Shown: positions 45,321 to 47,693 of the stretch, in pieces
Layout: each line of letters starts with the position of its first letter
Numbering within the stretch: the first letter of the stretch is position 1
Virus record (IMG/VR): IMGVR_UViG_3300045988_056849
DNA from: a virus
Strand: one strand, 5' to 3'
DNA length: 64,000 nucleotides
Translations under genes and position numbers: made by a program
Notes under the pieces: generated by a model
Told to the model about the DNA's origin: nothing
Database searches by the model: none
What the model saw: only the letters and a program-made list of their open reading frames with translations

Positions 45321-47693
45321 ATGAAAGAAATAAAGAAAGCGTTGGAAACTATTGCCCTCAAAAATTCTGAGGGCGTAGTTTCCGATGACCTTCTGATTAA
45401 GGCTTGCGATGCTTACAAGATAAAGTCCGATGATTTTCTTGACGACTATGATTATCATGTATGCGTCGCAAAGTCTTTGTACGACCATCTCAACGGAATA
45501 GAGCCTGATGAAGAAATTTGTAAGGCAGTAGTTCCTGGTCAAACGAAGGTTGTCGATGGAGTAATGTATATTTATACCGCAACACCTGGTGCTAAGACTA
45601 AGTATGATTGGCGAGTATTCAAAGGCAAGAAGAAGGTTGGTAAGCAGGTAGATGATACGAAAGCTAAGGCAAAACAACAATATATCAACGAGTTATTTCC
45701 AACCGATTTAAGCACTTTGAAAGTCGTTAAGAGGTTAGGCGGTAGCACTGGGGCTCAATTAGTAGAGGATGCTAAGGGCAATCAATACGTGATGAAGAAA
45801 GGCACGAACACTTCCAGTGGTCATGTAAAATCAGAGTTCCTGACTAATCAATTATACGAAATTCTTGGTCAAAAAGTTCCTGACTTTGAGCTTTATGATG
45901 ATAACGGAGAAGCAGTGATGCTATCGAAGTTCATACCTATGGCGCAAGCTCCGAGTGCTAAGAACTACGATGATATGGCAAAAGGGTTTATCGTTGATGC
46001 TCTTTTAGCAAACTGGGATATTTATCAGAACGACAATTGTTTAATTGATTCAGCTGGAAGAGTCATTCGAGTTGATAATGGAGGTGCTTTGAGTTATAGA
46101 GCTCAAGGCAGTAAGAAGGTATTTGGGAATATTGTAGATGAATTCCTTTCAATGCAAAAATATAATCCATCTATTGTTGCTAATCTTAAAGACGAAGATT
46201 ATATAAAACAAATTGAAGATGTATTAACTAAGCGTGACGATGTAATCAATTTTTTAGAAGAAAGTCCATGGACTCAAAATACAGGATATGCTAAAACTAT
46301 TTCTGGACGTTTTCAAGATTTGGAGCGTATTAAGAACGATTTGGAAGCAAAACTTGCTAAGAAGAACAAAAAGATATTGCCGAGAAAGCTCAAGAGCGAT
46401 GCTGATATGTATCGGGAGTTATCTGATGATGAGCTGGACGCTATATGGAAGGGTCAATCAGGCTCCGATTATTGGCGTAAACTCAATGCTACAAATTATA
46501 CCGTAGGTTGGGAGCTATTAAGTACGATATGTGCTGAAAGAGGTTTTACTGCCCGTCCAAACGTAGTAGATGAAGCGGAATATTGGAACGCTGTTAAGCA
46601 ATCAAAATATCAAATGTTCCGTGGGTTATCGGACGGAGGAGGACACGATGCGGAGTATTATGCCGATGATTTCAAATACAATGATAATTGTTTCTATGGA
46701 ACTATTGGTATTCACGGCTCTGGTATCTATGCTCACGTAAATGACGGAGACCACGACAAGAGTAATACTCAAACGACATATAAGAAGTCCGATGCTTACA
46801 ACGCTGCGAGAAGTTATGCTGGCCGTTCGGGAGAGATACTTGAATGCGTTCTTGACCCTTCGGCAAAAGTCGCTTTGGTTCCTGATTTGAAGAAGGAAAT
46901 ACTCAGTTTGGTAACCTTTGACAAAGCAGCTGTTGATGCGAAGCAGCTTGAGATTGATAGCCTAAACTCACAGCTGAAGAAGCAACAGGATGACCTCAAT
47001 AACATAACGGATAAGACCGAGAAGGAAATCAAAGAAAAGATGCACTGGGACGAAGATACGCTTGTAATGTCCCAACTTGAAATTGATAATACTGATTGGG
47101 GGAAACTGAACGATAACGGTGACCCAGACTATCCTACGTTTGAGGACTTCGTTGAGAAGAAGATGTTTGATTGGGTTAAGAAGAATGGCGGTACAGTAAC
47201 CGAGAAGGGGAAAGGAACGGATGTATATGTATTCACTTTGCCTAACAGTAAAGAGAAGTTCATGTTGAGTCGTTTTCAATGGGAGAACAACGCCATTAAA
47301 CGCAAGAATGCTTTTAGTAAAGCATACAACTATCCTTTGAAACGCTTCCAAGATTGGATGATGAAAGAACACTACGGTGTTATCAATAAAAAGGTAGCGA
47401 AGGAGCTTGAGCACATTGGAGACAAAGTTACTAACTTACAATCAGACATAAAGGTAACAAAGAACGAATTGAACGTCAAAACTTCCGAAATGGCAGACTT
47501 GAAGAAAACGAAAGACCCAAATGGAGACATTATTTCGGGCATCTACGAGTCAGTCAGAGGAGGAAGCAAAGAAGCTATTGGAACATACGCTGCGTTGAAA
47601 GGTTATGACGCTATTGTCGAGCCTCACGGAAACGGTGGCCCAAATTCGTTCATGATTATTCTCAACCGTAGTAAAGTAATTGTTAAAAAGTAA
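45321..47693 (+). CDS. multidomain (polyvalent-type) protein: protein-kinase-like domain + possible ADP-ribosyltransferase-like domain
   Basis: Kinase-like order and spacing: LGGSTGAQ (G-loop), YVMKKG (Lys), SEFLTNQLYE, VDALLANWD (D-x4-N), RVDNGG (DxG). Downstream: QMFRGL ... HGSGIYAH ... GEILECVL. Confidence 0.55.
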   Translation: MKEIKKALETIALKNSEGVVSDDLLIKACDAYKIKSDDFLDDYDYHVCVAKSLYDHLNGIEPDEEICKAVVPGQTKVVDGVMYIYTATPGAKTKYDWRVFKGKKKVGKQVDDTKAKAKQQYINELFPTDLSTLKVVKRLGGSTGAQLVEDAKGNQYVMKKGTNTSSGHVKSEFLTNQLYEILGQKVPDFELYDDNGEAVMLSKFIPMAQAPSAKNYDDMAKGFIVDALLANWDIYQNDNCLIDSAGRVIRVDNGGALSYRAQGSKKVFGNIVDEFLSMQKYNPSIVANLKDEDYIKQIEDVLTKRDDVINFLEESPWTQNTGYAKTISGRFQDLERIKNDLEAKLAKKNKKILPRKLKSDADMYRELSDDELDAIWKGQSGSDYWRKLNATNYTVGWELLSTICAERGFTARPNVVDEAEYWNAVKQSKYQMFRGLSDGGGHDAEYYADDFKYNDNCFYGTIGIHGSGIYAHVNDGDHDKSNTQTTYKKSDAYNAARSYAGRSGEILECVLDPSAKVALVPDLKKEILSLVTFDKAAVDAKQLEIDSLNSQLKKQQDDLNNITDKTEKEIKEKMHWDEDTLVMSQLEIDNTDWGKLNDNGDPDYPTFEDFVEKKMFDWVKKNGGTVTEKGKGTDVYVFTLPNSKEKFMLSRFQWENNAIKRKNAFSKAYNYPLKRFQDWMMKEHYGVINKKVAKELEHIGDKVTNLQSDIKVTKNELNVKTSEMADLKKTKDPNGDIISGIYESVRGGSKEAIGTYAALKGYDAIVEPHGNGGPNSFMIILNRSKVIVKK

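Follow-up and report, generated by a model that had tools for sequence, protein, structure and literature searches.

A conserved 790-residue phage protein with a predicted kinase fold and a probable, split ADP-ribosyltransferase-like domain: a candidate capsid-delivered effector

Polyvalent proteins, as described by Iyer et al. (2017; PMC5512222), bring together several effector-type enzymatic domains in one polypeptide that is encoded among virion genes. Their ADP-ribosyltransferase (ART) domain is defined by a His in strand 1, a Tyr in strand 2 and an Asp in strand 5, and a monophyletic kinase family lacking the C-terminal subdomain occurs in polyvalent proteins from phages of Bacteroidetes and Verrucomicrobia (PMC5512222). 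At the start of infection, the packaged, head-delivered Arg-Ser-Glu (R-S-E) ART Alt of T4 and the early kinase gp0.7 of T7 modify host RNA polymerase and translation factors (PMC5512222). Here we analyse a gene for a 790-residue protein that is located between the portal gene and the protease and major capsid protein (MCP) genes of an uncultured virus (IMG/VR record IMGVR_UViG_3300045988_056849), in a stretch of 64,000 nucleotides that we call the window. With moderate confidence, we consider this protein, which has a kinase-like and a second, probably ART-like domain, to be a stand-alone two-enzyme polyvalent effector that would be packaged in the capsid and delivered with the DNA into a Bacteroidales-type host.

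As in polyvalent proteins, a kinase-like domain, an ART-like domain and two further modules share a single polypeptide encoded among virion genes; the kinase-like domain belongs with the STY-kinase superfamily and has a reduced C-terminal lobe, the probable host is of Bacteroidetes type, and many relatives carry this kinase domain in fusion with MuF or portal domains. The present protein differs from them in that it stands alone, with 790 amino acids (aa) and without a MuF, portal or zincin peptidase domain. Its ART-like domain departs from the polyvalent ART (Tox-ART-HYD2-like, PF18760) by the strand-1 Arg, by a split of about 200 aa and by a score below the PF18760 threshold. In the kinase family of Iyer et al. 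(2017) an insert lies between the catalytic His and Asp, whereas our protein reads N231-W-D233, has no His and carries its insert between D233 and N239; the reduction of our C-terminal part to about 100 helical residues would be consistent with that family. We were unable to match its further diagnostic features in our protein, Q177 is not conserved across the wider kinase-like family, and the two families may or may not be the same. A kinase-like domain homologous to ours (28-34% identity; E 1e-10 to 1e-16) is found together with an ART in fHe-Yen8-01 gp129 (2146 aa), Pseudomonas phage Dolphis gp117 (1222 aa) and Gordonia phage GodonK gp67. Unlike our protein, proteins of this type, from Felix-O1-like and other phages, contain an R-S-E ART (ADPrib_exo_Tox), are much larger and often include MuF, and they have neither the split Arg-Tyr-Asp (R-Y-D) ART-like domain nor the N-terminal domain. 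The best target-normalised structural match was CtkA (JHP940; 3akj, 3akk and 3akl; TM-score 0.43-0.52). CtkA and the HipA-type kinases likewise show an atypical protein-kinase-like fold, occurrence on mobile elements and an (A/G)NxD...N catalytic loop, but CtkA has no significant sequence similarity to our protein (E 6.5), and the G-loop GGSTGA, the D-x5-N spacing and the C-terminal helical part are different. Finally, no homology is detectable with T4 Alt or T7 gp0.7, whose two activities the present protein would join, and the ART clade is not that of Alt.

Multi-enzyme polyvalent proteins with both a kinase and an ART are already described and common in deposited phage genomes. The original prediction for this gene, made from the letters of the window, had not recognised the combination as a described architecture; this was overstated, since such proteins are frequent and their kinases and ARTs are described in PMC5512222. 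What we regard as new is (i) a compact stand-alone protein of the polyvalent kind, (ii) a widespread kinase-like family that lies outside the curated profile libraries searched (Pfam, NCBIfam and PHROG) and has a perfectly conserved catalytic constellation, and (iii) an ART-like domain in which Arg takes the place of the strand-1 His and which a 200-residue insert divides in two. In thousands of protein clusters, the kinase-like domain is present but is unannotated or hidden under 'ADP-ribosyltransferase' labels, and we know of no polyvalent-protein kinase domain that has been experimentally characterised. If our reading is correct, an abundant human-gut phage family (clusters with hundreds of members, genomes of 96-100 kb, Bacteroidales-binned) injects a kinase and an ART, and the 790-residue protein would be a convenient model for its much larger polyvalent counterparts. 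If active, the split R-Y-D domain would also widen the active-site repertoire of the His-Tyr-Glu/Asp (H-Y-E/D) clade.

A conserved gene and its predicted kinase fold

The open reading frame (ORF; Table 1) starts 2 nt past the stop of the upstream gene, and the following gene begins 3 nt past its own stop, in a tightly packed operon that is all on one strand. Among 5.8 billion proteins searched, 317 homologs were found; of these, the top 120 were nearly all full length (45-93% identity), many of them lay on contigs of 96-100 kb, and every one was unnamed or 'hypothetical'. An AlphaFold2 (AF2) model of the whole protein was built on a 115-sequence alignment of the family. Because of the 317 homologs, and because the kinase motif residues are invariant both in this alignment and in 94 diverse domains elsewhere, the ORF is genuine and not a chance one. 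The gene was present on three contigs of genome collections, two of which were binned as Bacteroidales (one of these two measuring 97 kb), and the MCP of the window was closest to that of the Bacteroides thetaiotaomicron phages DAC16-23 (45% identity), then to Chryseobacterium phage MA9V-3 and then to SPO1/Herelle-like phages. Based on these MCP relatives and on the binning of the contigs with the gene, the source is an uncultured myophage of roughly 100 kb, probably with a host among the Bacteroidales. A crAss-like phage, to which contigs of roughly 97 kb could point, was rejected, as the MCP was nearest to the capsid proteins of Bacteroides DAC-type and Herelle-like myophages. A 9 kb query had no megablast match among GenBank phages.

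Residues 118-350 are supported as a protein-kinase-like domain by the predicted fold together with absolute residue conservation, and the domain is predicted to be an active phosphotransferase. A Foldseek comparison with the PDB gave 37 matches at E<=1e-3, all of them kinases at probability 1.00 (CtkA, CK1, PKA, MKK and Src-family); the top E-value belonged to yeast CK1 (8e-5) and the top target-normalised TM-score, 0.52, to Helicobacter pylori CtkA (3akk). Against BFVD, a full-length homolog with 42% identity came first, followed by large phage proteins with portal or ADP-ribosyltransferase labels and then by viral protein and lipid kinases, with PI3Ks among them. In the AF2 model, the G-loop (139-146) is placed between strands 134-138 and 146-149, K159 in strand 155-160 (beta3), E172 in helix 166-181 (alphaC), N239 directly before strand 240-242, and D252 after strand 248-250. 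Past D252 only some 100 helical residues follow (253-350, including R330), and the C-lobe, as modelled, is therefore reduced.

All motifs quoted in the original prediction are present where it had placed them, namely LGGSTGAQ (139-146), YVMKK (156-160), SEFLTNQLYE (171-180), VDALLANWD (225-233) and RVDNGG (250-255) in the kinase-like core, and QMFRGL (431-436), HGSGIYAH (465-472) and GEILECVL (504-511) in the ART-like segment. Its kinase-like core holds as regards the fold, the residues K159, E172 and D252 and their conservation, whereas the catalytic pair had been read as D226/N231 and is here assigned to D233/N239. The catalytic loop runs N231-x-D233...D238-N239, with the DFG-equivalent D252 in VDNGG. 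Use of D226 and N231 as the HRD-Asp/Asn pair was rejected on spacing and secondary structure; D226 is conserved but sits in the preceding helix, and N231 belongs to an (A/G)NxD motif reminiscent of HipA. From N239 to D252 there are 13 residues, the same as between N171 and D184 of PKA, and a weak DMPK profile alignment (34 residues, E 0.47) pairs D233, DN239 and D252 with the HRD Asp, the catalytic-loop Asn and the DFG Asp. On the strength of this spacing, of the position of N239 before a strand, of the DMPK alignment and of conservation, the predicted catalytic base is D233 and the predicted metal ligands are N239 and D252. With a D-to-N distance of 6 (8 in most relatives, versus the canonical 5), the catalytic loop is to be classed as non-canonical from its sequence.

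When 94 kinase domains with about 30-40% identity and very different architectures were compared, K159, E172, D233, N239 and D252 were identical in 94/94, while N231 (93/94), D226 (92/94) and D238 (90/94) were near-invariant. An exhaustive full-length profile search of 1.84 billion cluster representatives (50%-identity clusters) returned 5,642 at E<=1e-3 and 3,088 at E<=1e-10; outside the immediate family, the matches listed cover profile positions ~130-343, in proteins of 500-3,400 residues. The curated kinase profiles (Pfam Pkinase, HipA_C and similar) gave no match for our protein at E<=10. Two relatives matched Pfam HipA_C at 1e-5, and P0164 matched HipA_2 at 6e-5, all below threshold; these weak sequence matches agree with an atypical kinase of HipA/CtkA-like type.

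A second domain interrupted by a 200-residue insert

With the family hidden Markov model (HMM), four tandem copies of a related, uninterrupted domain were found in a protein of 1,423 residues, P0190, in which the N part (profile 386-480) and the C part (737-788) are separated by a gap of ~70 residues, as against ~265 profile positions in the family of our protein. In 25 more compact relatives, the two parts are joined with inserts of 0-60 residues. Because of these uninterrupted copies and compact relatives, the ART-like domain was delimited as residues 392-532 plus 733-790, with residues 533-732 as an insert. Long helical hairpins and a small alpha/beta unit (590-660) make up this insert, which is absent or much shorter in the compact relatives and for which Foldseek of the C-terminal half against the PDB found no known fold. 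The AF2 model of residues 352-790 had a pLDDT of 93.5 and a pTM of 0.72. What had been described in the original prediction as an unassigned C-terminus of ~270 aa is thus really the ~200-residue insert followed by the C-terminal third of the ART-like domain. The ART-like segment itself had been mis-mapped, as an undivided stretch with E509 as its third residue; the fold call is nevertheless probable, and R434, G468 and Y470 proved invariant.

The N-terminal part contains R434 in strand 1 (QMFRG), G466-x-G468-I-Y470 in strand 2, and strands 505-511 and 517-519, while the C-terminal part contains G761-Y-D763-A-I (the predicted strand 5 acid), G770-N771 and the strand FMIILN782-R783. Invariant in the 115 family members are R434, G435, G460, G468, Y470, G754, G761, D763, G770, N771, N782 and R783, and the pattern of the domain in alignments is QGFDAxP, (F/W/Y)RG, GxGxY, strand-loop-strand, a variable insert, GYDA(I/V) and hhLNR. 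At position 509 the homologs have E, D, S, L, K, G and others, and E509 or any ExE was rejected as the ART catalytic residue, E509 not being conserved and no ExE being found. The strand-1 His position is taken by the invariant R434, and Arg is also found there in nearly all compact relatives. Diphtheria toxin carries YHG (His21) at strand 1. We also observed that a solved diphtheria-toxin-like structure, 7rb4_A, has YRG at this position, so that the change from His to Arg occurs there as well.

As to the clade, the original prediction had left the choice between R/S/E and PARP-like. The R-S-E alternative does not stand: R434 is present, but strand 2 reads GIYAH and not STS, there is no ExE, and ADPrib_exo_Tox gave no match. 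From the sequence comparisons, the domain probably belongs to the H-Y-E/D branch (PARP, diphtheria toxin and ART-PolyVal), with D763, ~290 residues downstream across the insert, as the probable third catalytic position. The compact relative P0284 matched PF18760 (ART-PolyVal) at E 4e-6 with 28.1 bits (cut-off 31.2), from GxGxY through GYDAI...LNR; 3 of the 25 compact relatives matched ART-PolyVal at E<=0.1, and the P0190 copies matched ART-PolyVal at 0.03-0.04 and PARP at 0.0024-0.15. When a 33-sequence profile was compared with 177,635 PDB sequences, 28 weak matches (E 0.9-4.4) were obtained, 27 of which were ARTs: the diphtheria-toxin-like catalytic domain 7rb4, aligned over ~80 residues that include the YRG strand 1, and for the remainder tankyrase 1/2 at GxGIYF. 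With a profile of the compact family alone, 7rb4 was the sole match (E 0.22). G466-x-G468-I-Y470 (strand 469-473) aligns with GAGIYF of tankyrase and GLYAAE of 7rb4. D763 stands immediately before strand 764-767, its equivalence to the ART strand-5 Asp resting on sub-threshold alignments, and the bona fide ART-PolyVal protein P0173 carries GFDAL. Taken together, we hold the ART fold of the split domain to be likely, and rate its catalytic competence lower than the fold.

P0190 is itself a high-GC polyvalent protein, in which the four tandem compact R-Y-D ART-like domains are followed by a C-terminal ADPrib_exo_Tox domain. Three of its four copies retain a Glu before the LNR strand, in one case as ExE.

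The ways proposed with the original prediction for examining it led to divided results. Structure prediction with Foldseek returned the kinase fold, but no significant ART match for the C-terminal half; the HMM searches found neither a kinase nor an ART profile for the protein itself, and sub-threshold matches in its relatives; and conservation among homologs extended to the kinase residues and R434 but not to E509.

Proposed delivery with the virion and proposed mode of action

We scanned 50 proteins outside the family, all with the kinase domain, for co-occurring domains. Phage_Mu_F was found in 19 of them, a portal domain in 7 and Phage_min_cap2 in 1, so that, in all, 27 of the 50 have one of these three kinds of head-protein domain fused to the kinase. 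An ART is carried by 14/50, as ADPrib_exo_Tox (10), ART (PF01129; 3) or ART-PolyVal (1), and NUDIX (5), 2H (2), RelA_SpoT (1) and inorganic pyrophosphatase (InPase; 1) also co-occur. Such domains form the effector repertoire that is predicted to be packaged in heads and injected (PMC5512222, PMC9503650). The kinase-containing 'ADP-ribosyltransferase toxin' gp129 of Yersinia phage fHe-Yen8-01 (2,146 residues) is annotated in GenBank as 'phage particle associated protein', and the homolog of Gordonia phage GodonK directly follows the portal gene. Because of the head-protein fusions of the relatives, the particle annotation of gp129 and the gene order in GodonK, our analysis points to virion delivery as the most likely mode.

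According to the reading that we favour, the 790-aa protein would be synthesised late, together with the head proteins, would be built into the capsid, and would enter the Bacteroidales-type host cell with the DNA. There, the kinase domain would be an active atypical phosphotransferase, nearest to the CtkA/HipA type, and would phosphorylate host targets, most probably proteins. In its active site, ATP would be positioned by K159 and E172 and Mg2+ bound by N239 and D252, with D233 as the base. The second domain would be an NAD+-using ART of the His-Tyr-Asp (H-Y-D) branch in which the strand-1 His has been replaced by Arg, with R434-Y470-D763 as its triad, and would ADP-ribosylate host targets. 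The ~200-residue insert, at a site that is variable in the family, would presumably be a target-recognition or docking module. Both domains could in this way modify host macromolecules early, for host takeover or a blunting of defence, as do T7 gp0.7 and T4 Alt.

A number of results weigh against this reading. For the whole protein or its pieces, Pfam (to E<=10), PHROGs and NCBIfam gave no match, and neither phmmer nor whole-family profile searches of the PDB sequences gave a significant one; a profile search of the PDB sequences with the kinase domain of 18 diverse proteins likewise found nothing significant. Among the fold matches of the kinase domain are an APH-like N-acetylhexosamine kinase and PI3Ks, so that the substrate may be a protein or a small molecule. 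As to the ART-like domain, Pfam gave no match whether it was intact or spliced; Foldseek of the C-terminal half against the PDB gave nothing significant, PARP1 and cholix toxin appearing at E 3-6 with probability <=0.04; and an hhalign comparison of the ART-like profile with five aligned ART-PolyVal sequences was negative. That alignment was shallow, as a search with the bona fide ART-PolyVal domain returned 4 close relatives, and the same hhalign run paired the N-terminal GFDA motif with GFDAL of ART-PolyVal, which makes the test ambiguous. The family has neither a strand-1 His nor any catalytic Glu, and the domain could be inactive. The protein has no MuF, portal or minor capsid fusion, nor does the adjacent gene encode MuF. 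Immediately downstream come genes for an endolysin and a lipoprotein, so that this stretch of the head module also holds non-virion genes; with lysis genes directly downstream, genome position alone therefore cannot prove that the protein is a virion component.

A non-catalytic ART-like domain, binding NAD+ or ADP-ribose or having a structural or docking role and leaving the kinase as sole enzyme, is in our judgement unlikely. The lack of a His in strand 1, the lack of a Glu or ExE before the last strands and the lack of a significant database or fold match would be in keeping with it, as would the Glu kept in some of the P0190 copies (EVEVVLLNR, KEIVLLNR and IEAVVLNR) at the place where the present family has F777. 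However, R434, G435, G468, Y470, G761, D763, N782 and R783 are invariant in the 115 members, as expected of an active site, and these eight residues are invariant or at least 90% conserved in the compact relatives at ~25% identity. Moreover, H-Y-D ARTs use Asp and not Glu, and the diphtheria-toxin homolog in the PDB likewise has YRG at strand 1.

With its two enzymatic domains unchanged, the protein might instead go unpackaged and act late in the infected cell. It might then modify either virion or assembly proteins of the phage, in concert with the glycosyltransferase, the PIG-L-like deacetylase and the P-loop protein encoded nearby, or else host proteins. We hold this to be quite unlikely. 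It is favoured by the character of the stretch from the MuF-like gene to the protease, which can be seen as an accessory island (PIG-L-like and GT4-like genes, a radical SAM/SPASM gene in a relative, and lysis genes), and by the missing MuF or portal fusion and missing adjacent MuF; it is opposed by the covalent joining of 27 of the 50 other kinase-domain proteins to head-incorporated domains, by the one relative annotated as particle-associated, and by the co-occurring ART, NUDIX, 2H and RelA_SpoT domains, a typical set of injected effectors (PMC5512222, PMC9503650).

A similarly low probability is given to a kinase that acts on a small molecule, nucleotide signal, sugar or lipid, for which APH/choline-kinase-like and PI3/4-kinase-like precedents exist and whose target might be a second messenger of host defence or a cell-envelope precursor. 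The fold matches include N-acetylhexosamine 1-kinase (4wh1 and 4wh3) and viral PI3/4-kinases, the NDN motif in the catalytic loop is, like the reduced C-lobe, reminiscent of atypical kinases, neither an activation-segment nor an APE-like motif is present, and nucleotide-metabolising domains (NUDIX, 2H, RelA_SpoT and InPase) co-occur. In contrast, the protein kinases CtkA, CK1, PKA and MKK lead the structural matches in E-value and target TM-score, the weak Pfam links point to HipA-type protein kinases, and proteins are favoured as targets by the T7 gp0.7 precedent as well as by what PMC5512222 predicts.

A purely structural or scaffolding role in the head, with the enzyme-like motifs as relics, is hardly credible: the location of the gene in the head module and the long helical, coiled-coil-like segments of the protein (323-348, 535-589 and 671-727) would fit, but conservation of the five catalytic residues of the kinase is 100% in the 94 domains (~30-40% identity, very different architectures), which is unexpected for relics.

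The N-terminal domain and the gene neighbourhood

Table 1. Positions in the window of the 790-aa protein, its parts and the surrounding genes.
Feature	Position (nt)	Strand	Remarks
Portal protein	33761..35494	+	Opens head module
Several unknown ORFs	35742-40228
320-aa protein with HPYCRC motif, candidate MuF-like minor head protein	40195..41157	+	Pfam negative; tentative
PIG-L-like protein	41166-41843
GT4-like glycosyltransferase	41827-43296
655-aa P-loop protein, upstream neighbour	43351..45318	+	Walker A GGAGIGKS, acidic tracts
Whole ORF, 790 aa plus stop	45321..47693	+	Homologs; AF2 model, mean pLDDT 89.3
N-terminal domain, residues 1-117	45321..45671	+	Three helices, three-stranded beta unit, helix
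Beta-hairpin motif PGQTKxxDGxxYIYT....K.YDWR, residues 72-99	45534..45617	+	Shared by three phage proteins
Atypical protein-kinase-like domain, residues 118-350	45672..46370	+	Foldseek, viral kinases in BFVD, residue conservation
Helical linker, residues 351-391	46371..46493	+	Invariant R355, M363, Y364
ART-like domain, N-terminal two-thirds, residues 392-532	46494..46916	+	RGFxARP helix, QMFRG strand 1, GxGIY strand 2
Insert within ART-like domain, residues 533-732, ~200 aa	46917..47516	+	Helical hairpins and alpha/beta unit
ART-like domain, C-terminal third, residues 733-790	47517..47690	+	Helix, GYDAI strand, FMIILNR strand
121-aa protein	47697-48062
GH108 lysin	48064-48474		E 1.6e-15
ORF with lipoprotein signal	48471-48800
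Prohead protease/scaffold	48848-50383	+
Major capsid protein	50410-51903	+

The N-terminal domain, for which Pfam and PDB profile searches found no relative, contains the invariant residues Y45, K51, S52, K68, P72, G73, K76, G80, T88 and W97. Its beta-hairpin includes a motif, [WY]x[WY]T..(4-10)..[FY]DWR, that is present in our protein (45567-45617), in the 655-aa upstream neighbour (43423-43510) and in a Lys-rich 422-aa protein (10700-10790; ORF 9872-11140). The motif reads VGDxHPxxxWVWTEYxxGKFDWR in two of these proteins and PGQTKVVDGVMYIYTATPGAKTKYDWR in the 790-aa protein; 200 shuffles gave an expectation of 0 occurrences, and it is kept in the related phage L002. A tblastn search of GenBank phages with the 43-aa motif gave no match. 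The DWR motif could be a common interaction or targeting element. We regard as distinctly improbable, when taken as a whole, a joint reading in which the protein would be a compact member of a large family of capsid-delivered HipA/CtkA-like kinases with a new R-Y-D branch of ARTs and a DWR signal; in such a reading, the insert would select the target, both domains would hit one host factor, for instance by a phosphorylation-primed ADP-ribosylation, and the DWR hairpin would be a capsid-targeting or ejection signal that marks a set of co-injected proteins.

The original prediction had placed the gene next to MuF. This was not borne out: searches of Pfam, NCBIfam and PHROGs gave no match to MuF for the adjacent 655-aa protein, which instead matches phrog_1250, of unknown function, and has a P-loop (Walker A motif GGAGIGKS); it was rejected as MuF for lack of a Phage_Mu_F (PF04233) match. 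A MuF-like candidate lies 4 kb upstream of the 790-aa gene instead. This 320-aa protein has a C-terminal PTHPYCRC that is kept in Bacteroides DAC, Chryseobacterium MA9V-3 and SP-10-like Bacillus phages, and the homolog encoded by Bacillus phage Nachito bears the label minor capsid protein. It had no match to Phage_Mu_F (PF04233) or any other Pfam family, and its pairwise alignment with a real MuF covers only the CRC motif. Tentatively, it is likely a divergent MuF/gp7 equivalent.

Inside the head module we also observed a PIG-L-like putative deacetylase (Pfam E 0.088) and a GT4-like glycosyltransferase (41166-43296); at the matching place in the related phage L002, a radical SAM/SPASM gene is inserted (4882-5838). 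This suggests that the region is a variable island of modifying enzymes, possibly concerned with virion glycosylation.

Lysis genes are embedded in the head module, between the 790-aa gene and the prohead protease. The 121-aa ORF downstream of our protein was rejected as a holin, its translation having no long hydrophobic stretch. The ORF that overlaps the end of the GH108 lysin gene carries a lipoprotein signal (MKTLFICLLTALMVSCG) and is spanin-like.

The 655-aa neighbour has long acidic tracts and, near its C-terminus, four KAE[EDS][VI]L(N)F repeats (nt 44893, 44992, 45244 and 45292). This phage's own protease is devoid of a segment like residues 580-633 of the neighbour. These residues are, despite the great distance between the phages, 60-76% identical to a near-C-terminal segment of the capsid maturation protease of Gordonia phage ChisanaKitsune, Microbacterium phage proteins match them at the same level, and the segment may be a capsid-targeting or protease-related module.

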